Assembly (NCBI GenBank): GCA_043813075.1
Contig: JBDRLL010000033.1
Coordinates: 6,574 to 70,573 of the forward strand
DNA: 64,000 nucleotides
Direction: 5' to 3'
From: Candidatus Altiarchaeota archaeon
GTDB taxonomy: Archaea > Altiarchaeota > Altiarchaeia > IMC4 > SCGC-AAA252-I15
The notes under the pieces are model-generated. The model was not told the origin of the DNA, did no database searches, and worked only from the letters and a program-made list of their open reading frames with translations. Each line of letters opens with the position of its first letter. Position 1 is the stretch's first letter. Positions 4,540 through 63,510 of this stretch are shown here, in pieces. Both the position numbers and the translations under genes were made by a program.

Positions 4540-4540
4540 C

Positions 4541-8983: not shown

Positions 8984-11900
8984 ATGGGCAAGGTCGTCCA
9001 TCACCCAAGGCATCCTGACGCCAGGGGCAAGGTTGTTCTGCAGGAGGACGGGGAGCATCTGACCATCAGGTTTAACGAAGAGCTTCTAGGGGCTAACACC
9101 CATCTCCTGGGCAGGCTGCATGATGCCACAGGCCATACGGCACTGAAGAAGCTTGGGTCAGACAGCGTTAAGAAGCTTGTCACCGTATTGGACAGCGAGC
9201 GCGCTCACCTGGAGGAGACTGGAGGTAACGCCGATGAGAAGAGGCTTGTGGGCAGGGCGCTGGACGCACTAGTACTGCATTTGCATAGGATTGGCGAGGG
9301 ACATGATCTCCCGAACCATCTGTCGAGCCGCCACTTCTTTGCCAGGGAGTCGGAACTGCATAACCTGAGCGTTGGTGATATGAGGAGCAGGCTGTCCGCC
9401 TTCCTGTCGCCGACGAGGATCATGGACGCCAGCAATCCGGCGATGCACTTGAGGGCTATTATGACGCACAGACCGCAGAGGAGTGAAGAGGATTCGGGTT
9501 TCTTTTATGACAGTGACATACAGTGTTTCGTGAGGGATGATGTGGAGCCGATGCTTGAAAGGGATGACTTGAGCGCTAGGACAGTCAGGAGGAGCATCAG
9601 CGAGGGCCGGGTGGTGACCACACTTACCACCAGGTCAAGCCATGTCATAGAGTTCAGGGATGGATCTCCAGTCCTGACTGCGATTGGGGGTAGGAATTGC
9701 GAGCATTTGACTCTTGACAGAGACGGTAATACAACACCCTTACTTGCCGAAATCCAGGAGTCTATCGACATACATGACTTTGGTTCAAGCCCTGGGGGCA
9801 GGGCTCTCGCCAGCAGGTTGAGGCATGCTACTGAGCATATGAAATGGAAGGAGAAGCATGAGGCCCACGAGCAGTACAAGAGGCTTTGGAAGTCTCTTGG
9901 TCCTGATGAGAGGGCTGCGCTTGAGACTCCTGATGCTATCGCAGGCTTCATGGGGCCTAACTTGGGTGAGGGGGTTAGGCGTAGTATTGTTGATGGCATG
10001 CTGTCTAGGAGCATGTCGGCGGATGACGTTAGGGCAGTAGCTTCAGCGGAGTGCGTGGGTATGCTTGCGGCAGCGTATTCGAAGGAGGGTTATGGTGTTG
10101 TCGCAGACAACTATCTGGACAGGCTTGCTTCAGCCGCGCCCGCAGAGAAGGCCCTGCTCGGGCGCAGGGGTTTTGTGGAGGACTTGCGCAGTCACTTGTC
10201 TAAAGCCACTGGGGAGGATGGTCTTATGGGTCAAGTTGCGTCAAGAGTGAACGAGCTTGTGGACTATGTCGCAGACTCGTCCAGGCATCACGGGTGCAGG
10301 CAGGTGTTCACGCTCCACGGGGTTTCAAAGGCTTACTTGGGTGATAAGGACATGCGGTTGGATGTTCTGGAGGCTAATCTCCCGCAGGACGAGAGGACGC
10401 GGGCATTTCTTATAGACACTGGAATGGCAGCGTCAATGATAACAGAGTCATCTCACCGGGAGGTTCTGGTGGAGACCATGTCAAAGACCACGCCGGAGAT
10501 TGTGGACAGGATACGGGGGACTCTCGTGGAAGCCAGACTGAGGGACGGGAGCCTCACTGGATTCGGCAGGCTAGTCCTGTTCAGAGACCAGGAGAGCAGG
10601 AATGCGGTGGCCGCATGCGGTACAGTCGCGAGACTGGGGCCTTTGGCTGGTAACGCTTATCTGAACGCTGCAGTACAGAGCCTCCACGACAAGGCCACCA
10701 TCTACGCTGACCCGGATTACATAGCCCTCCTTGAGGCTTCCAGCGACGAGGCAGGCCAGGCGCTGGTCCACGGCCAGCACACCCTAGTGAATCATTGGGT
10801 GACTAACAGGGAGTTCTGGGGGAGTCAGGAGGCTAGAGCCATGTGCGGTGCCGCGGATTATAAGGTTATGAAGGCGCTTATCGCAGCGCACGATAAGTGG
10901 GAGAGGCTTCCTGACGGATTCGCCCAGGCTGGTACCGCACTCGCACAGGGCAATGCGAGTGAAGGGGAGATAGCCGCGTGGGCGAAGGCTGCTAAGGGCG
11001 GCCTGCAGAGCGCGTTGATGAATCAGGGGTGCGTGGCGAATCTCATGTCCATGGGTTCAGACCCGAACACGAGGGAGCCTAGGACTAAGGCTTTGCTGAG
11101 TGAGATGGGGGATCTTGTTGGTGAGAAAGTTTGGAGCCCGACTGGAAGGACTAGTGGGAGGAGGCGTCCTAGGGACGGCGGGGAGAATATGGGTAAGGCC
11201 ATAGTCGATACGCTGGCTGACGATGAGACTAGGAGGAGGCTGATGGGCCTCCCCAATGAGGAGGCGCTTAAAAACGGGTTCTCGCTGGCTGTGGACGAGA
11301 AGGCTCGTGGGAGAGCATACTGTGTGCCTGCGGCAGACGCCCTGCAGCATTCGGAGTTCATGCCCCCACAGATGGCTGCCATGTATCTGGGCGAGGCGAA
11401 GGAGGATCTGGACGAGCATGAGGAAGCGAGTAGGGGTAGTATGTTACGTGATAAAGCGCTCTTAAGATTGATTGCTGAGAAGCTTCCTGAGGGGGTGGCG
11501 GCCCACGTGGTCAAGATGATGGGGTCGATTCACTTCACGAGACCGGAGGAGTTGAAGGCGCTCCTGCGGGATGCTGAAGGGCCGGTTATCCCTGATGGGC
11601 TTACCGTTGAACAGGGTGGTTCACTGCTCTCGCTACAGATTGATGTTCCGGAGGGATTCCCGGTCGCTGACGTGAAGCGTGCTGTCGCAACCATGTGCGG
11701 GGCGGAGGCTGTAGCACCGACAGACTATGATGGCACGCCCATACCTGTGACGCCTGATAAGATGAAGAGCGAGAGCGTATCAACGTACATGAGCCACATG
11801 TCTGAAAAGAAGAATGACATGCACTTTGACCATGATGGGGTTGGGGGTCATTTAGAGGTTGTCAGGCAGGCGACCGAGACGTTCACCCTGCTAGGACCAC

Positions 11901-14500
11901 TCGGTTATGGTTATAGTCGCGAGGACTTTGACGGTAGGACGGAGGTATATGACTCCAGGACCGAAGTCGCGCAAGGGCTCACTGAGATGAGGCAGTTGGG
12001 CATTAAATTCAGTTACACGCCTGTCGTTGAGATGGGTGGTGAAGGCGGTAAAGAGAGGCGTGTCGTCACCACAGACCCGTGGACTTCCTACGCGTGCCAG
12101 ACTGGTTCAAGCTTGATTTTGGAGGATGCGCAGAGGATATGCGCGGATACCGGCTCGCTTCCCAGAGCATTCACGGACGGTGTTCTCGCGGGAGCTAGGA
12201 GGAGGGCGGGAAACACGGAGCCGGCAGGCCCGGAACTCCAGGCCAGCTTCCATGGAGGGATGTGCGAGCTGGCGCAACGTGTCAAGCCCATCGAGGGCTC
12301 CCTTAAGGTGGATCTGCTGGACTGGATTAGGTATGGCAACACGCACGCCCAGGTGGTTATGGATGCATTGGTAGCGGACCCGACTGCTCCAATAGCGGAA
12401 AACCTTGAGTCCAACTACTATAGTAAAGCAGAGCAGTTGGGGAAAGCGGTCGAAGGCCTGCGTAGGGTACGCAACGACTATCCCATAGACGCTGCATCAC
12501 TTGAGCCTGTGGTGTTAACCCAGACGCCGGAGGCTTGCGCAGCATTCATGAAGAGTCTGGAGCCGTTGGCTGATGACGAGAGGGGTAAGAGGCCGGAGCC
12601 TCTCCACGTTATTGCAGCCACTGCGTTAGTCAGCCCGATAGTCTCGGCGGGGGCTGACTTCACTGGAGTGACCGGTGAGGTGGGGAAGATACTGCAGGAG
12701 ACTACAGGCAACCCGTTGAGCATGCTGGTGACAGGATTAAAGCCGCTTGTAGAGGATGGGACGGTACATGACTTGGAGACTCTAGGCGCCTACGGTCACG
12801 CGTTGGCGAGAGTAACCCAGGTGAACGCTTCCAGCCAGGCGATGGAGATGGCGCTCACCCGCATCACGCCAAGGTATGAGGGGACCGAAGCACTGCCGCC
12901 CAGAAGTGTTGCAGAGGAGTGTGAAGTCTTCTGCGGATATCTCGGAGACTTTGGGCCGTCCAATATCCCGAGGCTCTACGAGACTTACCGCGGCATTAGG
13001 ATGGGTGCGGAGCCGAGTGAAGATGCGAAGGCTGCTGGCCTGACCAAGACCGGTGATCAGGGTGTGAGGCAGCTGAAGGCTTTGGAGGCGAGGGCGAGGA
13101 AGAAGCTGTTGGGCGACGACAGGAGCGTGCAGGTTGAAAGCCAGCTGGAGGCTGACATCATGACTTCGATGCTGAAGATCGAGACCAGCGACTGGGCGAG
13201 GGGTACGACTCTCGCAGACATACTGGAGCAGTTGAATGCAGCCATAGCTGACGGGCGTGTGGCGGATGTCCCAAAAGGCTATGATAGGGGGGTAATCAGG
13301 GTAGACAAGAAGGATGCCAAGGCGGTGGCTGAATTCCAGTTCCAGCCGCACGCGCACGAGAAGCTGGAGGATATCAGGGAGGACGTCAGGGCTGTGACAG
13401 GCAAGACTGTTGAAGAGGTTGTTGTGGAGGCGAGGACTGCCATAATCCAGGGCGCTGAAGCCCAGGTAAGGGCGCTTGAGGATTCACTAGCCCAGGCAGA
13501 CCCTTCAGAGAAAGGATACGCTGGCAGGAAGAAGGGCTGTGAGATGAGGATACGAAGATACAGGGAACTGGCGGAGAGGGTGAAGGACCAGGATACTGTG
13601 GAAGGCTTCGTGGAAACCGTCGCCAGCTGGGAGGGCAAGAAGGATGACGAAGTGACCACAACCCACCTTAGGAGGGTCCTGATAAGCTACGGCATGTCAC
13701 AGAAGTCTGATGGCGGCGGAAAATTCAGGAGGGCTGTCGAGTCCCCGCTCAAGGACGGTATCGAAGACGTGAATGAATTCTACGAGATACTCTTGAGGAA
13801 GCACATCCTAGGCCCCAACGACCAGGTTGAGGGTTATCTGCCGCTTTCAAAAGAAGCGAAAAAGAGGGCGCAGCAGGTGGTTCGCCAGCCCACCATAGAG
13901 GAGGAGTTGAGTAGGAGGGAGAACATTGCTGCTGCAGGGAAGGAGGAGATTCTTGTGGTGCCGTCAAGGGGATTGAGGGGTGAGACCTGCGGCTACTACT
14001 CTGACGCATGCTACACGAGCGTGAATGGCATGCTTGAGGGGCACCCCAACATAGTGCCACTAACGCTTGTGAGAGGCCCTGAGACACCGTCAGAGAGGAT
14101 TATCGGCGGTGTGCTGGTGATAGAGGCTCAGACAGCTGAGAGAAGGGGTCTTGGAGGGGAAGTGATCCCATCAGAAAAGGTTCTGGTGCTGAGGGCAGTG
14201 AACCCGCAGGAGACTGCCATCAGGGCGCTCAAGGCGGACAGTTTCATGGAAGAATTCATTGACGGGTATGTCGTCCCAACTGCACGTAAGAGGGGTGCTA
14301 TGAGGATACTCGTAGCCAAGAGCGCTGCTGGCGCTTCCATGACCAACAGGCCAAGCATAGCGGACTACGTGAACGGGGAGGGAAGTCCATACGAGAGCGC
14401 TGAGGTGATACCGCTCGCTGATGAGCCTCCGAGCACATTCAACGGCTATGACATAAGAGGCAAGTGCGTGCTGGTGAGAGACCTTGCTAAATCAGCATAG
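8984..14500 (+). CDS. Giant orphan protein (1838 aa), predicted cytoplasmic, no recognisable domain
   Basis: This is a single uninterrupted ORF with no signal peptide or TM segment. It is rich in Ala/Glu/Arg/Gly/Leu. It has its own AT-rich box (ctattattatcg, 8953-8964) about 25 nt upstream of the ATG, which suggests a leaderless transcript. All other frames contain only short shadow ORFs. Confidence 0.8.
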   Translation: MGKVVHHPRHPDARGKVVLQEDGEHLTIRFNEELLGANTHLLGRLHDATGHTALKKLGSDSVKKLVTVLDSERAHLEETGGNADEKRLVGRALDALVLHLHRIGEGHDLPNHLSSRHFFARESELHNLSVGDMRSRLSAFLSPTRIMDASNPAMHLRAIMTHRPQRSEEDSGFFYDSDIQCFVRDDVEPMLERDDLSARTVRRSISEGRVVTTLTTRSSHVIEFRDGSPVLTAIGGRNCEHLTLDRDGNTTPLLAEIQESIDIHDFGSSPGGRALASRLRHATEHMKWKEKHEAHEQYKRLWKSLGPDERAALETPDAIAGFMGPNLGEGVRRSIVDGMLSRSMSADDVRAVASAECVGMLAAAYSKEGYGVVADNYLDRLASAAPAEKALLGRRGFVEDLRSHLSKATGEDGLMGQVASRVNELVDYVADSSRHHGCRQVFTLHGVSKAYLGDKDMRLDVLEANLPQDERTRAFLIDTGMAASMITESSHREVLVETMSKTTPEIVDRIRGTLVEARLRDGSLTGFGRLVLFRDQESRNAVAACGTVARLGPLAGNAYLNAAVQSLHDKATIYADPDYIALLEASSDEAGQALVHGQHTLVNHWVTNREFWGSQEARAMCGAADYKVMKALIAAHDKWERLPDGFAQAGTALAQGNASEGEIAAWAKAAKGGLQSALMNQGCVANLMSMGSDPNTREPRTKALLSEMGDLVGEKVWSPTGRTSGRRRPRDGGENMGKAIVDTLADDETRRRLMGLPNEEALKNGFSLAVDEKARGRAYCVPAADALQHSEFMPPQMAAMYLGEAKEDLDEHEEASRGSMLRDKALLRLIAEKLPEGVAAHVVKMMGSIHFTRPEELKALLRDAEGPVIPDGLTVEQGGSLLSLQIDVPEGFPVADVKRAVATMCGAEAVAPTDYDGTPIPVTPDKMKSESVSTYMSHMSEKKNDMHFDHDGVGGHLEVVRQATETFTLLGPLGYGYSREDFDGRTEVYDSRTEVAQGLTEMRQLGIKFSYTPVVEMGGEGGKERRVVTTDPWTSYACQTGSSLILEDAQRICADTGSLPRAFTDGVLAGARRRAGNTEPAGPELQASFHGGMCELAQRVKPIEGSLKVDLLDWIRYGNTHAQVVMDALVADPTAPIAENLESNYYSKAEQLGKAVEGLRRVRNDYPIDAASLEPVVLTQTPEACAAFMKSLEPLADDERGKRPEPLHVIAATALVSPIVSAGADFTGVTGEVGKILQETTGNPLSMLVTGLKPLVEDGTVHDLETLGAYGHALARVTQVNASSQAMEMALTRITPRYEGTEALPPRSVAEECEVFCGYLGDFGPSNIPRLYETYRGIRMGAEPSEDAKAAGLTKTGDQGVRQLKALEARARKKLLGDDRSVQVESQLEADIMTSMLKIETSDWARGTTLADILEQLNAAIADGRVADVPKGYDRGVIRVDKKDAKAVAEFQFQPHAHEKLEDIREDVRAVTGKTVEEVVVEARTAIIQGAEAQVRALEDSLAQADPSEKGYAGRKKGCEMRIRRYRELAERVKDQDTVEGFVETVASWEGKKDDEVTTTHLRRVLISYGMSQKSDGGGKFRRAVESPLKDGIEDVNEFYEILLRKHILGPNDQVEGYLPLSKEAKKRAQQVVRQPTIEEELSRRENIAAAGKEEILVVPSRGLRGETCGYYSDACYTSVNGMLEGHPNIVPLTLVRGPETPSERIIGGVLVIEAQTAERRGLGGEVIPSEKVLVLRAVNPQETAIRALKADSFMEEFIDGYVVPTARKRGAMRILVAKSAAGASMTNRPSIADYVNGEGSPYESAEVIPLADEPPSTFNGYDIRGKCVLVRDLAKSA

Positions 14501-43882: not shown

Positions 43883-44001
43883 CGGTCAACGGCCATAGCG
43901 GAGGGGCAACACCCGCAACCATTCCGAACGCGGAAGTAAAGTCCTCCAGCGATCCATACAGTACTGCTTACAAAGTGGGAATTATGGGACGCTGTTGACC
44001 A
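43883..44001 (+). rRNA. rrf: 5S ribosomal RNA, not linked to 16S/23S in this window
   Basis: The sequence GGTCAACGGCCATAGCGGAGGGGCAACACCCGCAACCATTCCGAACGCGGAAGTAAAGTCCTCCAGCGATCC...GCTGTTGACC has the terminal helix GGTCAAC/GTTGACC. The TATA-like box tttttatatta lies about 25 nt upstream. Confidence 0.9.
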
Positions 44002-47749: not shown

Positions 47750-50700
47750 CTAGAACAGGCCTGTGAAGAAGTCCACTATAGTGTCGATGATGCCCTTCTT
47801 CCGTGGTTTAGGCGCCTGCCTCTTTATCGTCGTCGTCGGCTTCATTGTTGTCGTAGTCGGCTTGAGGGTTGTGACGACCTGCATAGTGGTCGGCGGCGAC
47901 ATCAACGTGGTGGTAGGCTTCACTGTCGTGGTCGTGGGCTTAAGGGTCGTTGTCGTCGGCTTAAGCGTGGTGGTGGGCTTCAAAGTCGTCGGAACCACAG
48001 CACCCTCGGCCATTATGAATCCTACTACGGACTTGTAGCCGTTCTTAGTCACCTCCAGGTCGTATCTGCCGGGTGTTGTTGGCGTGAAGAAGACGTTGCC
48101 CATCGCATCGGTCCTGGCGAAGAACACCTCAACCTCATCCCTCAACACCTTCACTGCAGCATCCCATATGTATGGTCCCGTACCCCTCTTGTTGTCCAGC
48201 CTAATCCTGATACGGAGGGGGTTCCCGGCCGGGCCGAACTCTGGAGCATCTATGTAGAGCCTCTTCTTGCTTATGGATCCGCCGCCTGTGGCAGGGGGGT
48301 TGAGCTGGCCCCCAGCCCACACTGAGAACTCGCAGAACGGTATGCGCCACACACAGTATCCGCCTGCACTGCTGATTAGTGCGGCTTCAGAGGTACGGTC
48401 CACACAGTTCTCGCCGTTGTCGTCGCAGTGCCATAGGGAATCGCATCCCCCGCCCGACTCAGGTATCTTAAGCCTGCATTCCTCAGGGTGGAGGTTGTTG
48501 ATGATCTTGTCCCTCGTCTGTTGTGGGAGGCCGACGAACCCTATGCCGCCGCTGGTCCCCTGCTTTATCGCTCCTGCGTCGCTTATGGTGCGCACCTTGT
48601 CGTTTAGCGATGTCTTGCTGAGGTGGCAGTTCAGGAACTGCATGAATGTGGTGTTGGTGTTCTTCTCCAGTTTTATGTCCGCAGACCTGCCGTCAGTGTA
48701 GTTCGTCCTCATCCCCGCGTCCGCACCGCACATCTGGCCTTGCATGTGCTCGTAGGTGCCGTCCCGGTCCAGGTCGTAGCTAACCACCCAAGAGCTGGGC
48801 GCCTTTATCCTGGTCACGAAATTGCAGTACGGGCATCTGTCCGCGCTGGTTGTCGTGAAGTTGCTGCACTTGCTTGTCGTGCACCTGCCGTTGGTGTCGC
48901 ATATCTGCAGCTTGTAGAAGTAGGTGGTCGACGCCAGCAGGTCGTAGTCCAGGGAGTTGACTCCGCCGTCATTGTATATGTCCCCGATATGCCATACCTT
49001 GAACTCCTTGCTCAGGTTGCTGAGTATGCCTATGTCATGGATGTACGTCACGTTGCCGGTGCACCCTGAAGTCGTGTTGTAGAACAACACTGAGCCGTTG
49101 GTCGGCTTGTTGGTGTCATACATTATCATCGCCGCGTCTGGATACTCCTCTATCTTGGCTCCAACCAGCATGGGGGTGGAAGTGTCCTCGTATCCTGGAG
49201 CATGCACTCCAAGACCATTGTTCACGCAGAACGATGTTCCATAGCAGAACATGCTCTCGCAGCCCGCTGGAGTGAAGCAGTCCGCGAAATCGACGAAACC
49301 CTGCTTCATCATGTCGTTGAATTTCGAGGCGTCAGTGCCGTAGCTGAACATGTCTCCTATGTCAAAGTCCACTGAGCCTGGAGTGAACCATCCGGGCATG
49401 TCAACAATGTCTGACGGATTCGTGGCGCTGCCTGTGCAGTTGTCTGAAGCCACGAATATCCTGAAGTCCACTGACTCATTGTATAGTGTCGGATACTTCT
49501 TCAAACCCTTCTTGTCCACGGCAATCATTGGACCGCCAATCTCAGAGCACATCGCCATCTTAAAGTTGGATAACGTGATGTCTGCCGCAGTCCACTGGCC
49601 GTCAACACACCTGAACGCGTTGTATGTTTCTGACACGCTGCCGCCGGTGTAGTTGGCTTGATAGCGGAGGAGGAACTCGTAGCCCATCATGCTGCTGTTG
49701 TGCATTAGGCTGCAGTTACCTGTCTTCATTCCGTCCGTGTCCAGGTATACGAAGAGCTTCAATGGTTCTTCCCCGCTGCCTTGCTGACCCCATGCCTGAA
49801 GCATCTGGCCGTTGCAGACCGCGGACTGGCTGAAGTCGTTCATCATGGCGCCGAAGGCGAACGTGTCGCCCATGTCCTTGATGCCGAAGCCCACTATGTC
49901 CACTGAGTTGGGGGTTGCGTCGCCCATTGCATCCATGCCCAGGGGAGTTGGCGGGCCGCCCTGCATCTTCTTGAAGTTGTCGACACCCATAGCAGGGTCG
50001 CAGAGCCCGTCCATCCACATGCATCCTTCAGCGCTCCCGCATGTGCCTGCCTCGTTTATCGTGAAGCACTGGGGCTCGCAGTGGTTGTTGGTCCACGTGC
50101 AGTAGGCACTGTATGTTCCAGTCGTAGTGCATTCACCCTGCGTCTGGTAGGAGTTGCATCTGTTGGCCTTCTCCATGCAGAAGTTGTTCTCCCACAGGCA
50201 CCAGTCATTGTTATCGCATTCTGTCTCGTCGTTTATCTGCCCGCACTTGCGTGTCTCGCAGAAGCTCTGCGGGAACGGGAAGTAGGAGCAGCCTGAAGTG
50301 GCGTTGCACGCCGTCTGGTTGCCGTCGAACTGGAAGCACATCATGCCCATGCCGCCTCCGCCGAAGGAGCCTCCGCCGAATCCTATTGGATCGCAGAATC
50401 CGGTTGACCACATGCATGTGCCACTCGGAGCGTTGTCACAGTCGTTCTGGGTCTGGTACTGCATGCAGTCCGCCATACCCTCTGGATCGCACCATCCTCC
50501 GCCGAAGGGGTCCTGGAACCAGGCGCATCCCTCGGTCTGCCCGCAGACTGTTGGATTGTTATCGTACTGAACGCAGTCCACGCCGCCTGAGAACGCCTCG
50601 AAATCGCAGTGTCCGCCCACATCCTGACACCACTGGTCATTCTGTGCCTCAGGAGAGTTGCACCACTCGTCCTGAACCCACACGCAGTTCGAGTCGGCGT

Positions 50701-52912
50701 CGCACGCCTGCTCGCCCAGCGGGAAGCATTCCTCGCCCATTTTCCAGTTCATCACGCATTCTCCGCCTCCCGGTGGCTGATGCCATTCGCAGCTCTCGTT
50801 TTGAATCCCGCAAGCCGTCTGGTTGCCGTCGAACTGGAAGCAGAATGCTCCAGCCATATCGCACCATCCGCCCCACGCGTCGGTCATCCAGAGGCATCCG
50901 TCAGCGTCGTTGCATGATGTCTCGTCGTTGTATGCGAAGCAGTTCCCTCCGCCGCCACCGCATGCAGAGTCGCCGAAGCACCCGCTGTCAGCGCAGTCTA
51001 TAGAGTCATCGTCATCGTCGTCCACACCGTTCCAGCATACTTCAGTGGCTCCTGAAGCGGGCTGGCACATTCCGGCGCCGTCACTCCATTTGCACGCTCC
51101 CGCAGTCCCACGACCCATGTTGTTGCAGTCCTCTCGTTCATAGCACCGGTCGCACGCGTCCGCGCAGGTCTTGTCTCCCTTCGGCACGCAGATGCTCAGT
51201 GAAGTATCCCACTTGCAGTTAGCCTTGCTGTTGTCGCACTCCTTCTGCGGGCTCGGCAGGTACTCGCATCCAGCACAGTCAGTCTGGCAGTCGCCGGCCA
51301 GACCCTTCTTGAGTGCGTCGGCGGGCTCGCAGTATCCGTAGCCGTTGGGTGCGTTAGATTCCTGGATGAACGTGCATCCTCTTGGGGAGTTCTGGCATGC
51401 CGTCTGGGCTGACGACAGGCTTGTGACGTTGTTTCCGTTGCTGTCGTAGTATTCGCACGCGAAGCACGCCTTCTTGCAGTTCCGCTCCTCATCGAACTTG
51501 TTCTCGCATCTTCCGGCAGGCACTGCAATCCATGACTCGCCGGACTGCTCGCAGTATGACTCCATAATCCACTTGCCGCCAGCGTATTCGCACGACTGCT
51601 TGTTGTCTATCTGCGAGACCTTGTCTGCGCCGGAGTCGCCGCTCTTGAACTGGCATTGGCTTGCCGCAGTATTCCATTCGCAGGGCATATACCATGGGCT
51701 GCCCGCTATCTGTTGGCAGAGTTGCTGGTTGTTGTAGGCGTTATAGTCTTCACAATACATCGCACCTTCGGGGGGCGGTTCTATGTCATCCCAGCATGAG
51801 GGGCTGTACGTGTCCTGGCATGCGCCGGCACTCCACTCGCAGCATGTGGGTAAGACAGGTATCTTGTTGCACATGTCGGAGTCGGTTATGTTAGCGCAGA
51901 ATATCTCCTCAGAGCCCTGGCATTCATTGTTCTGCCATGAGCATCCGTCGACGTTACCGCAGGCCGTCTCCGACACGTCGAAGATGTAGCAGCCTGGACT
52001 CCACTTGTCAAAGAAGGTTCCGCCACCTAGCGGCTCGACACATTCCCCCGCATTGAAATCCCAGAAACAGAACATTGTGTCGAAACATTCCCTGTCAGTG
52101 GTGAAGTCTGAGCAGGATTCAGTGAAGTTGCGGAAGCACCAGCCGCCGTTCCCATCCCACACGCATTCGATGCCGTACTGGTTGTTGACGCATCCATCCT
52201 CGGTCGCTGCGCCCTGGAGGGTTATGTTGTCGAAGAGCCAGCACTGCACTTCCTCGCAGTGCCCGCCGCCGGAGGGGGTGAACCAGAAGCAGTCCGCGTT
52301 CTCGCAGTTGTTCTCAGTATTGTATTGGCTGCAGTCCACCCAACCGCAGTATGGGGCGTCCCACTGGCATCCTGATCTGGCGTTGCATGCCGTCTGGTTT
52401 CCGTCCAGTTCATTGCAGGTTGACTCGTAGCAGTAGTTTGAATTATTGTTCCACATGCAGTTTCCAGCACCCATGCCTTTCTTGCCGAGGCATGATGAGG
52501 AGCTCGTGTATTGGTCGCATGGTATTCCATGGCATATTCCGTTGATGTCCCATACGCAGGTTATTCCAGCAGCATTGTTTTCGCAGGTGTTTGTGTTAGT
52601 GTTGTCGAAGTTCCAGCATCCTTTCTCCTCGCACCATCCCTGCACCTGCATGTCGGTCCTCCAGATGCATGACTTGTTTATGGTGTTGGTGGAGTTGGAG
52701 CAGGATTCATTAGCCCATAGGGCCCAGCAGCCCTTCTGCTCGCACCAGGAGCCCATCGGGTCGTTGCGGTAGTCGCATTCGGAGAAGCTGTTGCATAGAG
52801 TCTCGTTTTCATCGTACTGGGAACAGTCCTCCACCGCCGAAACAGACAGAACAACATAGAATATGAATCCCAGCGCCAGAATGGAAAATATTTTTCCTGC
52901 ATTCATTTGCAC
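47750..52912 (-). CDS. Giant secreted Cys-rich modular surface protein (1720 aa) with Thr/Pro/Lys stalk
   Basis: It has a signal peptide (MQMNAGKIFSILALGFIFYVVLSVSA). Roughly 20 copies of a four-Cys module (C-x2-[YF]-x4-6-C-x4-7-C-x-W-x3-9-C) occupy about 49990-52840, and many N-x-S/T sequons are present. Central beta-rich regions and a prealbumin-like domain (TDAMGNVFFTPTTPGRYDLEVTKNGY) follow. The C-terminus has (T)nLKP repeats and a short hydrophobic end, GIIDTIVDFFTGLF. Confidence 0.85.
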   Translation of the reverse strand: MQMNAGKIFSILALGFIFYVVLSVSAVEDCSQYDENETLCNSFSECDYRNDPMGSWCEQKGCWALWANESCSNSTNTINKSCIWRTDMQVQGWCEEKGCWNFDNTNTNTCENNAAGITCVWDINGICHGIPCDQYTSSSSCLGKKGMGAGNCMWNNNSNYCYESTCNELDGNQTACNARSGCQWDAPYCGWVDCSQYNTENNCENADCFWFTPSGGGHCEEVQCWLFDNITLQGAATEDGCVNNQYGIECVWDGNGGWCFRNFTESCSDFTTDRECFDTMFCFWDFNAGECVEPLGGGTFFDKWSPGCYIFDVSETACGNVDGCSWQNNECQGSEEIFCANITDSDMCNKIPVLPTCCEWSAGACQDTYSPSCWDDIEPPPEGAMYCEDYNAYNNQQLCQQIAGSPWYMPCEWNTAASQCQFKSGDSGADKVSQIDNKQSCEYAGGKWIMESYCEQSGESWIAVPAGRCENKFDEERNCKKACFACEYYDSNGNNVTSLSSAQTACQNSPRGCTFIQESNAPNGYGYCEPADALKKGLAGDCQTDCAGCEYLPSPQKECDNSKANCKWDTSLSICVPKGDKTCADACDRCYEREDCNNMGRGTAGACKWSDGAGMCQPASGATEVCWNGVDDDDDDSIDCADSGCFGDSACGGGGGNCFAYNDETSCNDADGCLWMTDAWGGWCDMAGAFCFQFDGNQTACGIQNESCEWHQPPGGGECVMNWKMGEECFPLGEQACDADSNCVWVQDEWCNSPEAQNDQWCQDVGGHCDFEAFSGGVDCVQYDNNPTVCGQTEGCAWFQDPFGGGWCDPEGMADCMQYQTQNDCDNAPSGTCMWSTGFCDPIGFGGGSFGGGGMGMMCFQFDGNQTACNATSGCSYFPFPQSFCETRKCGQINDETECDNNDWCLWENNFCMEKANRCNSYQTQGECTTTGTYSAYCTWTNNHCEPQCFTINEAGTCGSAEGCMWMDGLCDPAMGVDNFKKMQGGPPTPLGMDAMGDATPNSVDIVGFGIKDMGDTFAFGAMMNDFSQSAVCNGQMLQAWGQQGSGEEPLKLFVYLDTDGMKTGNCSLMHNSSMMGYEFLLRYQANYTGGSVSETYNAFRCVDGQWTAADITLSNFKMAMCSEIGGPMIAVDKKGLKKYPTLYNESVDFRIFVASDNCTGSATNPSDIVDMPGWFTPGSVDFDIGDMFSYGTDASKFNDMMKQGFVDFADCFTPAGCESMFCYGTSFCVNNGLGVHAPGYEDTSTPMLVGAKIEEYPDAAMIMYDTNKPTNGSVLFYNTTSGCTGNVTYIHDIGILSNLSKEFKVWHIGDIYNDGGVNSLDYDLLASTTYFYKLQICDTNGRCTTSKCSNFTTTSADRCPYCNFVTRIKAPSSWVVSYDLDRDGTYEHMQGQMCGADAGMRTNYTDGRSADIKLEKNTNTTFMQFLNCHLSKTSLNDKVRTISDAGAIKQGTSGGIGFVGLPQQTRDKIINNLHPEECRLKIPESGGGCDSLWHCDDNGENCVDRTSEAALISSAGGYCVWRIPFCEFSVWAGGQLNPPATGGGSISKKRLYIDAPEFGPAGNPLRIRIRLDNKRGTGPYIWDAAVKVLRDEVEVFFARTDAMGNVFFTPTTPGRYDLEVTKNGYKSVVGFIMAEGAVVPTTLKPTTTLKPTTTTLKPTTTTVKPTTTLMSPPTTMQVVTTLKPTTTTMKPTTTIKRQAPKPRKKGIIDTIVDFFTGLF
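47828..47992 (-). repeat. Imperfect tandem 18-21 nt coding repeats for PTT(T)(T)[LVM]K
   Basis: The plus strand shows reiterated gtcgtcgt/ggtggtgg-ggctt[c/a]a units. They translate to PTTLKPTTTLKPTTTTLKPTTTTVKPTTT...TTLKPTTTTMKPTTT. Confidence 0.8.
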
Positions 52913-56411: not shown

Positions 56412-58325
56412 ATGTCTCCAGACAGTGTGAGCTATCATTTGATTGCGTTGTTCTTGCTGGCCATCCTATCGACTACGATAATAGTCGGCTGGACGTATTC
56501 TGGGGTCATCAATGTTGATGACAGGTTGGATGTGAAACCTGCAGTAGTTGAAGACAATAATAAAACCCTAAAACTAGCCGGTAAGGCGATAAGGGCGGCT
56601 GTGGATTCCGGCGACGCCGGCGAGTGCGATGCCCTAGATGGCAGATTGCTTGTGGAATGCGTGATTGAAGTCGCTAGGACTTCAAAGCCTGACGCGTGCG
56701 AGATGCTCAAAGACCATGCGGGAGACTATGGGAAATGCATTACTGAAGTGTCGCTTGTGAAAAACTCTGGAAAATGCGATATGCTCGGCAAGAAGACGAA
56801 GGAATACGTTAACTGCATAACAGAGAAGGCGAGGTACGAGATGAGGCCGGGCCTGTGCAACATGCTGAAGAAGGGCGGGGTGAAGGGCAAGGATTACGCC
56901 TTCTGCATAACAGAACTGTCGAAGGATATGGGCGAGGGTGTGTGCAAGAGGCTGAGGGAAAACAGCAGGAGGTATGAGTCCTGCCTGAATGAAGTCTCAA
57001 TAGAACAGGATGGGGAAGCGGGAGAAGGCTTATGCCCTGACTGCAACGTGCTGGTAATACTGATAGACGCCTTGAGGCCCGACCACATGGGCTGTTATGG
57101 GTATGATAAGGACACAAGCCCGAACATTGACGCTCTATCGGAAAAATCATTCCTATTCAATAATGCTGTCAGCCAGGCAACGTGGACCAAGCCATCCGTA
57201 GCCTCGATCTTCACGTCACTGAATCCTGGAAGGCACTGCACATTAAAGTTCAGCAACACGATAAGAGACGGTCTTGACACCAACGCCCTCCCTAAGAAGC
57301 TGACGACCATTGCGGAGGCGTTCAGGAACAACGGCTACAGGACTTACGGCATCACAAACAACCCGTTCATATCGCCTAAACTACAGTTCGGCCGAGGATT
57401 CAACACATATAAGCTTATAGGATGGAGTTCCCCCACATACACCAACGACAGGAAGGCGACGAGTGAGGTGCTGGACATACTATCGCGGGGGGGGAGAAAT
57501 GAGAGGAAGTTCATTTACCTGCATTACATGGGACCACACACGGAATACAATCCCCCACCACCATACAACAAGATGTTTTTAGGGGGGGATTACGTGTTCA
57601 TCGACACTAGGATGAAGCACCAGAACGAATACAACAGGATTAACCCGGGGATGCTTAAGGTGAGGTATATGGTGTCACAGTACGACGGTGAAATCGCGTT
57701 CATAGACTCTGAGGTGAAGACGCTGCTAAACGGCTTGATGGAGGAGAAGATGCTTGAAAAGACCATAGTCGTGATAACAGCAGACCATGGGGAATTCCTC
57801 GGTGAGGACATAAACGATGACGGTAGGAGGGAGTTTGGACATGTTTACCCGCCCCATGAGATAATGGTGAAAGTGCCCTTGATAATGCATGTTCCGGGCG
57901 TCGATGGGGCTCGCGTCATAAGCCAGCAGGTGAGGCTGATCGACTTGATGCCGACACTGCTGTCCATGACTGGGGGCGCAATACCAGACGGGCTGGACGG
58001 CACAGACATCACCCCAATGCTAAAGGGCTCTGAAATGAACCTCACCGCATACAGTGAGGAAAACAACCCTGAAGTATACTCCATAAGGAGAGGTGACTGG
58101 AAATACACGTATGACTTCAAGAAAAACACGGGCAGCTTATACAACATAACCGCAGACCCGTACGAGAGAGAGCCTGTGGCAAACGAGGGGAAGGTGGAGG
58201 ATGCGCTGAGGGAGGAGATGATGGACTACAGGGACAGCAGGCTATGCGGCGAAGACTACGACGCCACCACCGGCCTGAGCAAGGATACGATAGCCAGGCT
58301 CAGGGCCATAGGATACCTGACGTGA
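56412..58325 (+). CDS. Sulfatase-like (alkaline-phosphatase superfamily) hydrolase/transferase with N-terminal TM and five Cys-pair repeats
   Basis: It has a TM helix, then five copies of C-x2-L-x5-10-[YL]-x2-C-[IVL]-x-E, then VLVILIDALRPDHMGCYGY. Where sulfatases have C/S-x-P-x-R it has SQATWTKPSVASIFTS (Thr/Val at the positions of the formylglycine Cys and the Arg). It also has HYMGPH and TADHGE. Confidence 0.65.
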   Translation: MSPDSVSYHLIALFLLAILSTTIIVGWTYSGVINVDDRLDVKPAVVEDNNKTLKLAGKAIRAAVDSGDAGECDALDGRLLVECVIEVARTSKPDACEMLKDHAGDYGKCITEVSLVKNSGKCDMLGKKTKEYVNCITEKARYEMRPGLCNMLKKGGVKGKDYAFCITELSKDMGEGVCKRLRENSRRYESCLNEVSIEQDGEAGEGLCPDCNVLVILIDALRPDHMGCYGYDKDTSPNIDALSEKSFLFNNAVSQATWTKPSVASIFTSLNPGRHCTLKFSNTIRDGLDTNALPKKLTTIAEAFRNNGYRTYGITNNPFISPKLQFGRGFNTYKLIGWSSPTYTNDRKATSEVLDILSRGGRNERKFIYLHYMGPHTEYNPPPPYNKMFLGGDYVFIDTRMKHQNEYNRINPGMLKVRYMVSQYDGEIAFIDSEVKTLLNGLMEEKMLEKTIVVITADHGEFLGEDINDDGRREFGHVYPPHEIMVKVPLIMHVPGVDGARVISQQVRLIDLMPTLLSMTGGAIPDGLDGTDITPMLKGSEMNLTAYSEENNPEVYSIRRGDWKYTYDFKKNTGSLYNITADPYEREPVANEGKVEDALREEMMDYRDSRLCGEDYDATTGLSKDTIARLRAIGYLT

Positions 58326-59469: not shown

Positions 59470-59907
59470 TTAAACCCCGCATTCAGTCAGGATTATGGCG
59501 CCGTCAGCGGCGACAGTGTACACCATCTCATCACCGTTCTTGTCGTATGCGAACACGTTGAAGAAGACGTCATTCAACTCCGCGGCACGGCGGACGTCAC
59601 TGTAAGAGATTTTCTCAGCCTTCACGTAATCCACGACAACCTGCTTTGCCTCCCCCGGAGTCCTTACCGGAGACTTGCCTTCAACCAGCACCGGACCCTC
59701 AACCCTGTAGTCACTACACCAGCATTGCTCGACCATGCACTCGAAGAGCCCGCACACGTCATCCCTCTCACCCCTGCATTCCTGAGGTATCTCAGCCCAC
59801 GCGATACCCTTATACCTACGCAAGTCGTCGTCGCCCTGATTGCCCCCGTCCATGCAGCCTGACAAAAGCAGGAAAGCGACGACGATTATGGTGGATTTCA
59901 TGCCCAC
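59470..59907 (-). CDS. Lipobox lipoprotein with Cys-rich segment and PepSY-like C-terminal domain
   Basis: It has MGMKSTIIVVAFLLLSGC, then ECRGERDDVCGLFECMVEQCWC, then EAKQVVVDYVKAEKISYSDVRRAAELNDVFFNVFAYDKNGDEMVYTVAADGAII. Confidence 0.5.
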   Translation of the reverse strand: MGMKSTIIVVAFLLLSGCMDGGNQGDDDLRRYKGIAWAEIPQECRGERDDVCGLFECMVEQCWCSDYRVEGPVLVEGKSPVRTPGEAKQVVVDYVKAEKISYSDVRRAAELNDVFFNVFAYDKNGDEMVYTVAADGAIILTECGV

Positions 59908-59938: not shown

Positions 59939-61078
59939 ATGACACATATGAAGCGTAATGTATCCGCGCTTACGGTATTCTTTCTCATCACATCATTAAC
60001 AGTCAACATGGTCGACGGCAAATCCCTTGGAGACGTTGACTTTGGCAAGGACGGGTGGCAGGTAAAACACTTGGAGTATACTTTCCCCTGCGAAGGCTCG
60101 GCATACGAGGATGGACCATGCCACGGGCAAGAGGAATACCATACTATAACCATTGAATGGCCGGCTTACACTGTAACGCCGCTCCTAACAGCGTATAATA
60201 CGATAACCCATACCAGCGACCATGGATGCAAGTATGGTGGATACGGTTCCACAAAGATATTCGCGGACAAAATATCGGACACCGTGCATTTTGAAGGGGA
60301 ATCTAGGTCATTCCTCTCGGGTAAGGGTGAAAACCGTAGTTACGGTCCGTTTTACGCGGAGCCTGTTAAGGTGAATATAGTGCTAAGGCAGTGCGCGGAC
60401 TACGGATACCTCTACAAGACGACTTTCAGGAAGGATGTCTATTATAAGAATCTCGGATCCTGCGACAACTTCTGTATGACGGCTCACGACAACTGGTCAC
60501 GAGGCAGGGTAGTACAAGGCGAACAATATAAACAGTGTGAATGCTACTGCAAGGAGGGGGACGTGAAGGTGAACAGGGCATATGAGGGAAGATGGGTGTG
60601 CGAGACGACGACCACAACGCTAAAGACCACGACAACAACCTTCCCCCAATACGACAAGGACAAGGAATACTGCGGGCCGGAGAAGAACGATATCATCATG
60701 AAGATTATCCCCCGCGGCCACCTATTCTCTGGTGTGGACTTCAATAGGGGATGCTACGAGCATGACAGGTGCTATGCTGAGTGCGGGCAGACTGGGAAGT
60801 CTAAGGAGTCTTGCGACAGCGAGTTCCGGGAGCGTCTGCATGGGGTCTGCGAGAGCGTATTCGACATATACAGGAGCATGTGCCTGCAGAGGGGATGGTA
60901 CAACCCGTTCAGGTACTCCTGCCTTACCATAACCAAGAAGAACGAGTGGGACTGCTACGGGACAGCCAACACATACTGGGCGGCTGTGGCGGCTGGCGCA
61001 AACATGTTCGACGCATACCCCTGCGGGAAAAAAAGCGAACCATCAAGACCATACACACCCCAGAATCCGCACAAATAA
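59939..61078 (+). CDS. Secreted modular protein: shared N-domain, Thr linker, phospholipase A2-like C-terminal domain
   Basis: The signal peptide is MKRNVSALTVFFLITSLTVN (the start is uncertain among 59921, 59939 and 59948). The N-domain is paralogous to the next gene and the linker is TTTTTLKTTTTT. The C-terminal VDFNRGCYEHDRCY (HD at 60761-60766) matches the [FV]DF-x3-C-x2-HD-x2-Y motif of prokaryotic/fungal secreted PLA2. Confidence 0.55.
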   Translation: MTHMKRNVSALTVFFLITSLTVNMVDGKSLGDVDFGKDGWQVKHLEYTFPCEGSAYEDGPCHGQEEYHTITIEWPAYTVTPLLTAYNTITHTSDHGCKYGGYGSTKIFADKISDTVHFEGESRSFLSGKGENRSYGPFYAEPVKVNIVLRQCADYGYLYKTTFRKDVYYKNLGSCDNFCMTAHDNWSRGRVVQGEQYKQCECYCKEGDVKVNRAYEGRWVCETTTTTLKTTTTTFPQYDKDKEYCGPEKNDIIMKIIPRGHLFSGVDFNRGCYEHDRCYAECGQTGKSKESCDSEFRERLHGVCESVFDIYRSMCLQRGWYNPFRYSCLTITKKNEWDCYGTANTYWAAVAAGANMFDAYPCGKKSEPSRPYTPQNPHK

Positions 61079-61100
61079 AAAGGGTTGGGTTAATAGGTAA

Positions 61101-63038
61101 ATGGTAGCAGTGGCTCGCTTTACCCTGTGCGTTGCGGCAATATTTTTTCTCGCGTCATCAGCGTGCGCTGACTACCGCATCGACTACTCTACTGGACGAA
61201 CCAGCATGGGTGCGGAAGGATGGAATCATAAGAGCGACACTTTCACGTTCACATGCCATGGGGCGGCAGACCTTGTGAACACACCATGCTATGAGAAGGG
61301 AAAACCAGTGACCCGGGAGATGACAGTGTCCGGCAACTATGTGGTAATATACTTTGGGGAGAGATACGAGACTCCAGGATATGAGATGGGGCCTGAAGAC
61401 CTTTGCTGGGTGAAGTACATAAGGGATGGGGAAAAGAGGGCCATATGGTTTGAAGGCCCCATCAAGGAAAAGGCGGGAGTGCAGGAGGGTTATGGCTTCG
61501 ACTCTGAGATAATGAAGGGGCCGGTTACCATACAATACACTTGCAGGCCATACGGGTACGGGAGCTACGTGTATTCGGTAAGGCCGACAAACTGCTGGGT
61601 GGACATATACTATAAGGCCTACAACACGTGTAATGATTTCTGCACTGCGATAAGGGATAACGCATACGGTAAAGAGGAGGAGGGTGTCTGCAACTGCTAC
61701 TGTAACCCTGAATTCAGGAGGGCATACGATTACCTTGTTGTGGGGGAGAGGAAATACCGGCAGGAAGTATGCGCTCCCATAGAGACTACAACGACGACAA
61801 TTAAGACGACCACTACAACACTGAAAAAAGCCACGACCACAAGCACAACCCTCAGGGATAGGAGGGCCACGACAACGACAATACAGGGCTATCGTACCGT
61901 GCGGGGTCAGGTGCACGACGCATACGGTATCCCGCTGCCGAAAGTGAAGGTGGGCTTGTTCTGGCCGGACGACGGGAAAGAAAAGATCACTTACACAAAC
62001 GATGACGGATACTATTCCATTAAAGGGGGGCCGACTTTTGGTGTTAATCCGGAGAACAATGAGAAGGCTACCATAACGGTCTACCTGATTTCTGAGGGAG
62101 ATGGTATACAGATACTTGACTCCAAATCCCACAATACCATGGTATACATTAAGACAGAGTTTCCATTGAACAGTGAGGAGGACTTGATGCAGAACATTGG
62201 CTTTCCGTTGACCGAGTTTGACTGGATAACGTACTCGACGAGAAAGGAGTACCTGCATGATGCTGCAGTAATCTACCATGAGACCATGAGTGCTGTGAAG
62301 TTCTATGAGGAGACTCTCGGCGAGAGTGTGGGATACCAGACTCCTGAGGAGATTCGAATCAACAACAACCAGTATTGTGCGGCATGCCATGTCATTAGGC
62401 CGATCACTCCCATAGAGGATATGGGGATATACTACGACGATGATACGACAGACTATCAGTGTAAGGACCGCCACGACAACCGTGAGTGGCATGAGTTCAG
62501 CCACCACATGATGCTCGATGCATACAACGACTTCCCGGATGGAGGGGGGAATAACCACGGCGGATTTGCAAACCCCGATACTATTGACTCATTCCAGGAA
62601 GGATTTGCTGAGGCCATGGCGATAATCATAAGCGCTGAAAAGAAGGAGCCGTCCCCGAGATTATACGGCACGCACTTTGGTGATATAGACGTGGAGAGGA
62701 ACTATATGGACGACGAGTGGGAGGAGATCAGTGTCGCAGGCCTGATATGGGACCTCTACGATCCGAGAAGCTTTGGCGACGAGGATATGGTGGACATGAG
62801 CTTGAAGCAGGTCTGGGATGTCATAGGGACATATACTCTGAATGTGACGCACCTCTACAATAAGCTGGACAGCCTGGATAACGACGACTTGAGTGAAGAC
62901 GAAGATGGTGACGGGATAAGCGACCTGGACGAGATATTCATAGCTCATGGATTCTACTTGGATGAAAACAGGAATGGAGTATACGATATTAATGAAACAG
63001 TGGGGAGGGGGGACATAGACCGGGAATGGAGGCAGTAA
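61101..63038 (+). CDS. Secreted modular protein: shared N-domain, Thr linker, CarboxypepD_reg-like domain, HExxH gluzincin metalloprotease, acidic Ca-binding-like tail
   Basis: The signal peptide is MVAVARFTLCVAAIFFLASSACA and the linker is TTTTTIKTTTTTLKKATTTSTT. It has VRGQVHDAYGIPLPKVKVGLFWPDD...YTNDDGYYSIKG, HEFSH (62490-62504) with downstream SFQEGFAEAM, and DEDGDGISDLDE. Confidence 0.65.
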   Translation: MVAVARFTLCVAAIFFLASSACADYRIDYSTGRTSMGAEGWNHKSDTFTFTCHGAADLVNTPCYEKGKPVTREMTVSGNYVVIYFGERYETPGYEMGPEDLCWVKYIRDGEKRAIWFEGPIKEKAGVQEGYGFDSEIMKGPVTIQYTCRPYGYGSYVYSVRPTNCWVDIYYKAYNTCNDFCTAIRDNAYGKEEEGVCNCYCNPEFRRAYDYLVVGERKYRQEVCAPIETTTTTIKTTTTTLKKATTTSTTLRDRRATTTTIQGYRTVRGQVHDAYGIPLPKVKVGLFWPDDGKEKITYTNDDGYYSIKGGPTFGVNPENNEKATITVYLISEGDGIQILDSKSHNTMVYIKTEFPLNSEEDLMQNIGFPLTEFDWITYSTRKEYLHDAAVIYHETMSAVKFYEETLGESVGYQTPEEIRINNNQYCAACHVIRPITPIEDMGIYYDDDTTDYQCKDRHDNREWHEFSHHMMLDAYNDFPDGGGNNHGGFANPDTIDSFQEGFAEAMAIIISAEKKEPSPRLYGTHFGDIDVERNYMDDEWEEISVAGLIWDLYDPRSFGDEDMVDMSLKQVWDVIGTYTLNVTHLYNKLDSLDNDDLSEDEDGDGISDLDEIFIAHGFYLDENRNGVYDINETVGRGDIDREWRQ

Positions 63039-63039
63039 G

Positions 63040-63510
63040 ATGAATAAGACGTTTGTAATAATCGCGGTATTAATGCTTTGCGGGCTAGCGGATGCTACAC
63101 CATTAAAGCCTTTGGAGGGGTCATACATCCGGGTGAACGTTGTTGACGCGGAAAGCGGAGTGAGGATAAGCAACTATACGATAATCGTGTCTGTCGAATA
63201 CCCTGGTGATTTGAAGCAGGAAAGCTACACATACAACAGAACTTATGCTGGCGAGAACAGGATAGGCTTCTCCATGCCCCCCAGGTCATATGGTGCGGGG
63301 GCAAAGATAAGCGTCACATCAGAAGGCTACAACACGTCAGTCACTGAACCCATGACCAGCGACTACTACTGGAACAACCTGGGTGGGGAATACATCAAGG
63401 AATACACCTTCAAGGTCAAGAGGGAGGAGAAGCCACTATGCTGCATACCGGCCGTGGGATTGATCCTGCCCCTAATGGCAGCGGTCACCGCAAGACAGTT
63501 CTTAGGATAG
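63040..63510 (+). CDS. Small secreted protein with prealbumin-like domain and C-terminal hydrophobic anchor
   Basis: The start lies 2 nt after the upstream stop. It has the signal peptide MNKTFVIIAVLMLCGLADA, then YIRVNVVDAESGVRISNYTIIV, and the C-terminus PLCCIPAVGLILPLMAAVTARQFLG. Confidence 0.5.
   Translation: MNKTFVIIAVLMLCGLADATPLKPLEGSYIRVNVVDAESGVRISNYTIIVSVEYPGDLKQESYTYNRTYAGENRIGFSMPPRSYGAGAKISVTSEGYNTSVTEPMTSDYYWNNLGGEYIKEYTFKVKREEKPLCCIPAVGLILPLMAAVTARQFLG

Follow-up and report, generated by a model that had tools for sequence, protein, structure and literature searches.

Bacterial polymorphic toxins are exported multidomain proteins in which one N-terminal module is joined to unrelated enzymatic C-terminal domains, and phospholipase A2 (Tox-PLA2) and metallopeptidase (zincin) heads are both known among them (Zhang et al., 2012; PMC3482391). 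Archaeal polymorphic toxins have already been described (PMC3482391) and, according to a citation in PMC12352652, were also treated by Makarova et al. (2019, mBio); secreted peptidoglycan hydrolases of archaea, moreover, kill bacteria (PMC12352652). Here we analyze a gene cluster of comparable build in a 64,000-nucleotide (64-kb) stretch of contig JBDRLL010000033.1 from a Candidatus (Ca.) Altiarchaeota archaeon (assembly GCA_043813075.1), referred to throughout as the window. The cluster consists of three genes on one strand, A, B and C, and a divergently transcribed lipoprotein gene, L. A preliminary description of the same DNA had read A to C as a constant secreted stem with swapped enzymatic heads, resembling polymorphic toxins and having no described archaeal equivalent. 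We confirm the observation, and the interpretation is partly supported: as in polymorphic toxins, exported multidomain proteins carry one N-module in front of unrelated, predicted enzymatic domains, but the cluster does not look like a classical toxin/immunity system. The claim of novelty also has to be narrowed. The cluster belongs to a known kind, the secreted hydrolases or toxins that domain shuffling has assembled from several domains, but the particular families found here do appear undescribed. The explanation that we favor, at somewhat better than even weight, is that the cluster encodes modular hydrolases which are exported by Sec, work outside the cytoplasm, share a binding or anchoring module and have their target outside the producer.

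Gene A, at 59939..61078 on the plus strand, encodes 379 amino acids (aa) arranged as signal peptide, Cys-rich N-terminal domain, Thr linker and phospholipase A2 (PLA2)-like head; the gene caller starts it 9 nucleotides (nt) later, at 59948. Gene B (61101..63038, plus strand, 645 aa) has a signal peptide and a related Cys-rich domain, followed by a long Thr linker, a transthyretin-like sandwich, a zincin domain and an acidic, Ca-loop-like tail. The signal peptide of A, MTHMKRNVSALTVFFLITSLTVNMVDG (59939..60019, plus strand), was read by eye from the sequence, and signal-peptide-like segments can likewise be read on B and C. The two Cys-rich domains, which we call N-domains, lie at 60038..60601 in A (plus strand; aa 34-221, 10 Cys, supported by BLASTP against B) and at 61203..61781 in B (plus strand; aa 35-227, 11 Cys, supported by the AlphaFold2 model). 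BLASTP aligned residues 12-216 of A with residues 13-210 of B at 27% identity over 217 aa (E=6e-9). This was the single significant high-scoring segment pair; beyond the linker there was no further one, and the sequences diverge. In a MAFFT alignment of the two N-domains, the elements GW, TF-C-G, PC, FEG, C-YGY, YYK-C-FC-DN, C-CYC and AY fall into register. On all these points (signal peptides, a paralogous Cys domain of about 190 aa with its landmark motifs and similarity confined to the N-terminal part, complete divergence after the linker) the preliminary description was correct.

With a profile of these two sequences, HMMER was run exhaustively against 1.84 billion cluster representatives and found the N-domain in eight further proteins (E 6e-32 to 1e-4). 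Pairwise identities in the 10-member alignment are 24-40%; 10 Cys are invariant or nearly so, as are a number of positions with Gly, Trp, Tyr or Thr. A local hmmsearch with the 10-sequence profile returned A at E=5.5e-56, A itself being among the profile seeds. A word-index search with the same alignment gave zero matches, the proteins of the window included, which we take to be a limitation of the prefilter or tool, and a word-index homolog search with A recovered A alone. The N-domain has no Pfam or NCBIfam match. Its AlphaFold2 model, built from the 10-sequence alignment, is all-beta (pLDDT 87.7, pTM 0.81), and Foldseek found no convincing match for this model, either in the PDB (best E=0.07) or in BFVD (best E=0.009), with TM<=0.3 throughout; the CUB-EGF and jelly-roll folds were considered and rejected as weak resemblances. 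We conclude that the N-domain is a true, small and undescribed family.

As the preliminary description had expected, this family is not confined to one type of head. Giving proteins and loci outside the window P and L numbers, we find the N-domain followed by a Thr linker and PLA2-like head in A and in P0004 and P0008, which are orthologs of A; by a zincin in B; and by four further tails, unrelated to one another and to all of Pfam, in P0006, P0007, P0010 and P0011. In P0005 (partial) and P0009 the N-domain is followed by a short tail or by nothing. All-against-all BLAST linked only the PLA2 tails, giving at least six mutually unrelated types of C-terminal region, and the non-PLA2 tails have no Pfam match. 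Papain/transglutaminase-like (C..H..D) and caspase-like (H..C) readings of the P0006 and P0010 tails, respectively, were unsupported in Pfam and PDB, and PDB sequence searches with these two tails, full A and full B gave nothing useful. The named family members belong to Ca. Altiarchaeales. One member, P0012/P0010 (L052 6001-7404 / L053 1771-3174), lies amid the bacterial genes RF-1, FtsEX and SurA_N, near a pilin-like N_methyl gene and a Y1 transposase, and is followed by a 143-aa membrane-anchored open reading frame (ORF). This bacterial context suggests that the module has been transferred between domains of life.

The head of A (60641..61030, plus strand; aa 235-364, 10 Cys) follows the Thr linker ETTTTTLKTTTTT (60602..60640, plus strand) and resembles the secreted PLA2 (sPLA2) superfamily. 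The motif given in the preliminary description, VDFNRGCYEHDRCYAEC, is present, as is the catalytic His-Asp motif C-x-x-H-D-x-C-Y, in the form GCYEHDRCYAEC; CYEHDRCYAEC, at 60752-60784 on the plus strand, contains His275/Asp276 (60761-60766). Like sPLA2s, the head is predicted to be a small, disulfide-rich and exported domain in which C-x-x-H-D-x-C-Y is followed by C-D-x-x-F. It has Y-C-G-P-E (60668-60682, plus strand), a predicted Ca loop, where sPLA2s have [YW]-C-G-x-G. In all four PLA2 heads (those of A, P0004, P0008 and the second gene in L003) F-P, Y-C-G-P-E, C-Y-x-H-D-x-C-Y-A-E-C...C-D and further Cys are invariant; Y-C-G-P-E sits 24-28 residues upstream of the active-site motif, and the predicted Ca loop lacks a conserved second Gly.

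PF06951 (PLA2G12, group XII sPLA2) matches all four heads, with a best E of 3.7e-6, and PF09056 (prokaryotic PLA2) matches three of the four (E=0.0035). The sole PDB chain found from the PLA2-head profile was the S. violaceoruber PLA2 1faz (E=0.55), with HD aligned on HD. The A head stays below the curated cutoffs of both families, scoring 27.4 bits against 34 for PF06951 and 18.3 against 29.4 for PF09056. The PLA2 assignment in the preliminary description was thus right in kind, but the profile it had put forward, PF09056, matches weakly and is not the best one: the head is closest to group XII (PF06951), and then to the prokaryotic/fungal group XIV (PF09056, 1faz). Besides its scores, it differs from described sPLA2s in its archaeal host, its 10-Cys pattern, the replacement of the second Ca-loop Gly and its fusion to a preceding Cys-rich beta domain of 190 aa by way of a Thr linker. 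Together, these comparisons consistently support a divergent sPLA2 domain that falls below the curated threshold. In 2012, Nevalainen and colleagues reportedly stated that Archaea have no sPLA2. A secondary citation within PMC11811501 contradicts such an absence. In the literature we found no paper on archaeal sPLA2.

In B, the Thr-rich linker ETTTTTIKTTTTTLKKATTTSTTLRDRRATTTT (61782..61880, plus strand) leads into a CarboxypepD_reg/transthyretin-like beta-sandwich (61893..62180, plus strand; about aa 265-360) and then the zincin catalytic domain (62181..63035, plus strand; about aa 361-645). The sandwich had been recognized as CarboxypepD_reg-like in the preliminary description, and the predicted fold is compatible with this, with Foldseek matches to carboxypeptidase D domain 3mn8 (root-mean-square deviation 3.5 A, E=2.5e-3) and other transthyretin-like folds; but PF13620, which matches B at E=1.1e-6 and 11 of 35 family members, scores 29.3 bits on B against a cutoff of 32.3. 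The HEFSH...QEGFAEAM arrangement and DxDGDGxxD tail reported for B are present. Across 35 zincin-family sequences, N460-F466 (NREWHEF), H468, H486, E500 and E541-E542 are invariant, and EGFAE is nearly so. On the plus strand of the window, these residues fall in NREWHEFSHH (62478-62507; H464, E465 and H468), NNHGGF (62550-62567; H486), QEGFAEAM (62595-62618; E500) and the invariant pair EE541-542 (62715-62732). The acidic DxDGDG tail, DEDGDGISDLDE, follows at 62898-62933 on the same strand; its DEDGDG was considered as an S100/EF-hand, for which the PDB match (E=0.08) is not significant.

None of the 35 family members matches a Pfam peptidase family at E<=0.1, the search of B for Peptidase_MA_2 (PF13485) that the preliminary description had proposed gave no match, and the 35-sequence profile has no PDB sequence match in the catalytic region. 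In an AlphaFold2 model of the B head from a 9-sequence alignment (pLDDT 71, pTM 0.74), the N-terminal beta-sandwich is followed by a long helix, then a small sheet, the HExxH helix (200-214 in head numbering) and the E500 helix (234-252). The best full-length Foldseek matches of this model are to thermolysin, 1kei/4tln (E=5e-4 to 8e-4, probability 1.00, TMt 0.45-0.50), and to aureolysin 1bqb (E=2.4e-3). As in thermolysin-like gluzincins (MEROPS MA(E), M4), one helix bears HExxH and the long helix after it bears a conserved Glu; EGFAE is also reminiscent of the NEGFA motif of M1. B differs from these enzymes in having no profile match to a Pfam peptidase or PDB chain, in its His-to-Glu spacing of 31 residues with a Gly-rich insert that carries the invariant His486, and in its setting, with a sandwich before the domain, the beta-sandwich of gene C after it and the acidic DxDGDG tail. 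With moderate confidence, the conserved residues and the predicted fold lead us to identify the head of B as a gluzincin, as had been proposed, within an unnamed family of thermolysin-like zincins. E500 is the predicted third zinc ligand, with the invariant H486 as an alternative candidate. In a word-index search the only close relative of B was P0003, from Altiarchaeota (48% identity over B 265-644). Locus scans found the zincin head in a Micrarchaeota metagenome-assembled genome (MAG; L002) and in 48 metagenome loci, and the family members named by exact look-up are one from Micrarchaeota and one from a Clostridiales-bacterium MAG.

Gene C (63040..63510, plus strand, 156 aa) begins one nucleotide past the stop of B. 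It has its own signal peptide (63040-63096, plus strand) and a C-terminal CCIP motif with a hydrophobic anchor (63439-63507, plus strand), and it ends in CCIPAVGLILPLMAAVTARQFLG. It had been described as a third small anchored protein, but its relatives speak against an independent one. After P0003 (L001) comes, at equally tight spacing, a gene whose 156-aa product is 39% identical to C (E=8e-38), and in a Micrarchaeota protein (L002) the C module is fused right after the zincin domain (E=2e-10). A local hmmsearch of the fetched loci placed the module directly C-terminal to the zincin, within one ORF, in about 20 metagenome proteins; in the window, L001 and L020 the module is encoded on its own, in the ORF that follows. 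By these comparisons, C represents the C-terminal beta-sandwich domain of the B family, split off here, and B and C are a split two-domain unit. Because C is fused to the zincin in relatives, it is not an immunity protein; its own signal peptide and anchor suggest that it holds B at the membrane. A C-terminus made up of CC-[IG]-[PG], some 17 hydrophobic residues and then a basic one recurs in three different exported proteins, namely C (63439-63507), the ORF at 3-1169 in L014 and P0007 (L057 3751-5193), examples being CCIPAVGLILPLMAAVTAR, CCCIPLLTGIIALITAMLMRVVK and CCGGPVFILLSLLAIIRK. By analogy with PGF-CTERM, this tail may serve the lineage as a sorting or anchoring signal of its own.

The near-identity of the A and B linkers, to which the preliminary description had drawn attention, holds at the protein level, but the linker is not peculiar to A and B. 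ETTTTTLKTTTTT in A and ETTTTTIKTTTTT in B agree at 12 of 13 aa and at 28 of 39 nt (72% as DNA), and an unrelated 1720-aa protein of the window has a TTTT-LK-TTTT linker too, as do proteins of L001 and L003. Spacers of this kind are general between domains in the lineage, and the Thr residues are presumably O-glycosylated. Nor is the stem constant, as had been supposed. The zincin head stands behind at least four N-terminal modules: the N-domain in B, those of P0003 and L002, and the P0021 type. The N-terminal region of P0003 is also Cys-rich but is a different module from that of B: hhalign gave its match to the N-domain a probability of 1%. P0021, from Micrarchaeota, has an N-module in common with an unrelated 275-aa protein of L001 (E=1e-15); this module, seen at L001 4778-5602 and in P0021 (L030 5080-7830), is small and Cys-rich, with the pattern NCLC-x-C...C-x-C-x-x-FGC...GDCYD-x-C. 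The PLA2 head behaves similarly. In L003 (Ca. Altiarchaeales GCA_014727915.1), PLA2-head genes at 299-2664 and 3232-5556 stand in tandem with differing N-terminal modules, one having the N-domain and its neighbor a different Cys-rich module. Close to this pair is a gene for a 774-aa Thr/Cys-rich protein whose C-terminal C...H...D is reminiscent of transglutaminase-like proteases. Because the heads also sit on other N-modules, and because the N-domains are 24-40% identical, the sequences point to ancient many-to-many domain shuffling and not to cassette swapping on a constant stem.

Lipoprotein gene L, which the preliminary description had overlooked, adjoins A at 59470..59907 on the minus strand and is transcribed divergently from it. 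Its 145-aa product carries a lipobox (LLSGC), the Cys motif DDVCGLFECMVEQCWC and, at the C-terminus, CGV, and it has no Pfam or NCBIfam match. A homolog in L055 (2052-2480, minus strand; 52% identity) is the divergent neighbor of P0004. Others, in L054 (9078-9527, plus strand), L058 and L059 (36% identity), lie two genes downstream of P0011/P0014, the heads of which are non-PLA2. The family is Cys-rich, has the motif DDVCGL[FY][ED]CMV-x2-CWC and stands near N-domain genes in three independent loci; the flank of L003 reaches the contig end. The three loci are suggestive, and they make L a candidate docking partner of the N-domain. Because L tracks the N-domain and not the head type, a docking partner fits better than a head-specific immunity protein.

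The wider neighborhood is archaeal in content, including phosphopantothenate synthetase PF02006 (PPS_PS), ELP3 and M50, and the closest relatives of the proteins A, B, C and L carry the annotation Candidatus Altiarchaeota or Altiarchaeales. A 5S rRNA gene stands alone at 43885-44000 (plus strand, 71 bits), and the 64-kb window yielded no 16S rRNA, 23S rRNA or tRNA genes. The 1720-aa protein mentioned above, encoded at 47750-52912 on the minus strand, is exported and has a CarboxypepD_reg-like match near its C-terminus and a TTTTLKPTTTT linker. A sulfatase gene (PF00884, E=2e-45) occupies 56412-58325 on the plus strand; its product has an unusual N-terminal extension of ~200 aa, made up of Cys-containing, helical-looking repeats with the pattern C-x-ML...Y-x-x-CI-x-E. 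A giant ORF of 1838 aa lies at 8984-14500. Outside the window, L001 3313-4728 encodes a secreted Cys-rich protein with duplicated modules and Thr/Ser linkers, the tail of which (PEF...hydrophobic...KRKS) resembles a PEF-CTERM-type sorting signal.

How might these proteins work together? In the explanation that we favor, A would be a Ca2+-dependent, sPLA2-type lipase with the predicted dyad His275/Asp276 and the predicted Ca loop YCGPE, and B a thermolysin-like zinc metallopeptidase with H464, H468 and E500 as predicted ligands and E465 as general base. C would probably re-associate with B and, as a membrane-anchored polypeptide, hold it at the cell surface. The N-domain, lineage-specific, disulfide-rich and predicted to be all-beta, would serve as a common binding module on a Thr-rich spacer, either docking the enzymes to a structure on the producer's surface, for which L is the candidate, or binding a shared target. 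The substrates would be ester phospholipids, which the producer lacks, or extracellular proteins. Archaeal membrane lipids are ether-linked and offer a PLA2 no sn-2 ester; a PLA2 would therefore be unable to hydrolyze the producer's own lipids, and this, if it applies here, would explain why there is no immunity gene. The lipase would then act on the ester phospholipids of bacteria (or eukaryotes), in an attack on neighboring bacteria or in scavenging from them.

A true polymorphic-toxin-like system would read the same architecture differently, with the N-domain as a delivery stem, swappable toxin heads that serve contact-dependent or inter-strain competition, and protection by a cognate immunity protein such as L. 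The N-module does come with six or more types of C-terminal region that are unrelated to one another, bacterial toxins are known to use PLA2 and metallopeptidase heads (PMC3482391), and an adjacent extracytoplasmic lipoprotein recalls the Tli/Tai-type immunity proteins of periplasm-acting effectors. Against this, the N-modules are anciently diverged (24-40% identical) and show no sharp recombination breakpoint, the linker is generic and 72% identical as DNA, and the heads have been shuffled, many-to-many, onto other N-modules as well. No Pfam or NCBIfam match was found to a trafficking domain of the type V, VI or VII secretion system (T5/T6/T7SS), RHS or PVC type, the export signals being Sec-type signal peptides only. 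As the preliminary description had stated, there is no cytoplasmic immunity gene: the locus has no head-specific one and no conserved small cytoplasmic ORF. Orphan toxin/immunity cassettes are absent downstream, where the next gene after C encodes a CaCA-type cation antiporter. L follows the N-domain and not the head, which in P0011 is a different one, and C is a peptidase domain, not an immunity protein. The analogy drawn earlier thus survives for one N-module with many heads but fails for immunity, orphan cassettes, trafficking domain and a conserved stem with recent recombination, and we regard a true system of this type as improbable here.

The enzymes might alternatively be directed at the producer's own envelope, in the maturation of S-layer or hami-type proteins or the turnover of lipid-anchored proteins, with the PLA2-like head cleaving a non-phospholipid ester or serving only in binding. 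The exported or surface-located neighbors (the sulfatase with its Cys-rich N-terminus, the 1720-aa protein that shares the linker, the lipoproteins) would suit such a role, as would the membrane anchor on C and the wide occurrence of the zincin family in large multidomain surface-type proteins. It sits less well with a complete PLA2 catalytic and Ca-loop signature that is invariant in all four homologs, which argues for a true lipase; with ether lipids that lack the sn-2 ester substrate; and with the absence of envelope-biogenesis genes among the adjacent ORFs checked. We consider self-directed envelope enzymes possible but unlikely. It is less probable still that the N-domain is a mere spacer or stalk of exported proteins, and that A and B go back to a local tandem duplication with later exchange of heads and are functionally uncoupled. 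Their adjacency as paralogs would be in keeping with this, and so would the small size of the family, with its 10 representatives among 1.84 billion clusters, and the existence of P0005 (partial) and P0009, which are N-domain alone or with a short tail. The domain nevertheless keeps 10 Cys and several aromatic and Gly positions across 10 divergent members, is predicted with confidence to be compact, has been retained in archaeal and bacterial hosts, and co-occurs with L.

Several points weigh against the explanation by shared-module hydrolases with an outside target. The PLA2 assignment of the A head comes from sequence comparison and lies below the Pfam threshold. The zincin of B has no Pfam match at all, and its model is moderately confident, with TM-scores to thermolysin of 0.4-0.5. 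The binding role of the N-domain is suggested by architecture, the fold having no structural analogue. L was not seen in L052/53, with their bacterial flanks, or in the short contigs L056 and L057, and its linkage to N-domain genes elsewhere may be inherited synteny. Self-immunity through ether lipids is an assumption, and some archaea encode fatty-acid and ester-lipid genes.

Two further comparisons help to place the cluster. With the secreted peptidoglycan hydrolases of archaea, A would share a substrate absent from the producer, so that no immunity is needed and a bacterial target is implied; the enzyme class differs, and bacterial killing has been shown there, whereas here the activity is a prediction. 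Cellulosomes, in which dockerin-bearing enzymes with exchangeable catalytic domains attach to an anchored scaffoldin, offer a functional analogy only: a common non-catalytic module on diverse hydrolases, Thr-rich linkers and an anchored partner encoded nearby. The N-domain and L are unrelated in sequence or fold to dockerin and cohesin, and their binding is hypothetical. A bolder proposal, to which we give a small chance, is that Altiarchaeales and their relatives possess an enzyme-display system of their own, in which the N-domain docks PLA2, zincin and at least four other heads onto L, the PLA2 being anti-bacterial or lipid-harvesting and the producer immune. If true, this would be the lipid-side counterpart of the archaeal peptidoglycan hydrolases and a possible source of lysolipids in Altiarchaeota-dominated aquifers. 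In one such aquifer community lysolipids are abundant, and phospholipase A has been invoked as a possible source (PMC7242380), which for the present cluster is a contextual lead only.

Overall, this analysis defines three uncharacterized families: the N-domain, a zincin with a dedicated beta-sandwich and lipoprotein L. The fusion and splitting of C is a textbook Rosetta-stone case, and it corrects the annotation of B and C. Evidence on how archaea act against neighboring bacteria is scarce, and a secreted PLA2-type enzyme in an ether-lipid organism provides a clean and testable hypothesis, namely that its substrates are ester lipids only and that immunity is unnecessary. Should the N-domain turn out to serve in docking or targeting, it would give a new handle on the organization of surface proteins in this uncultivated archaeal lineage.

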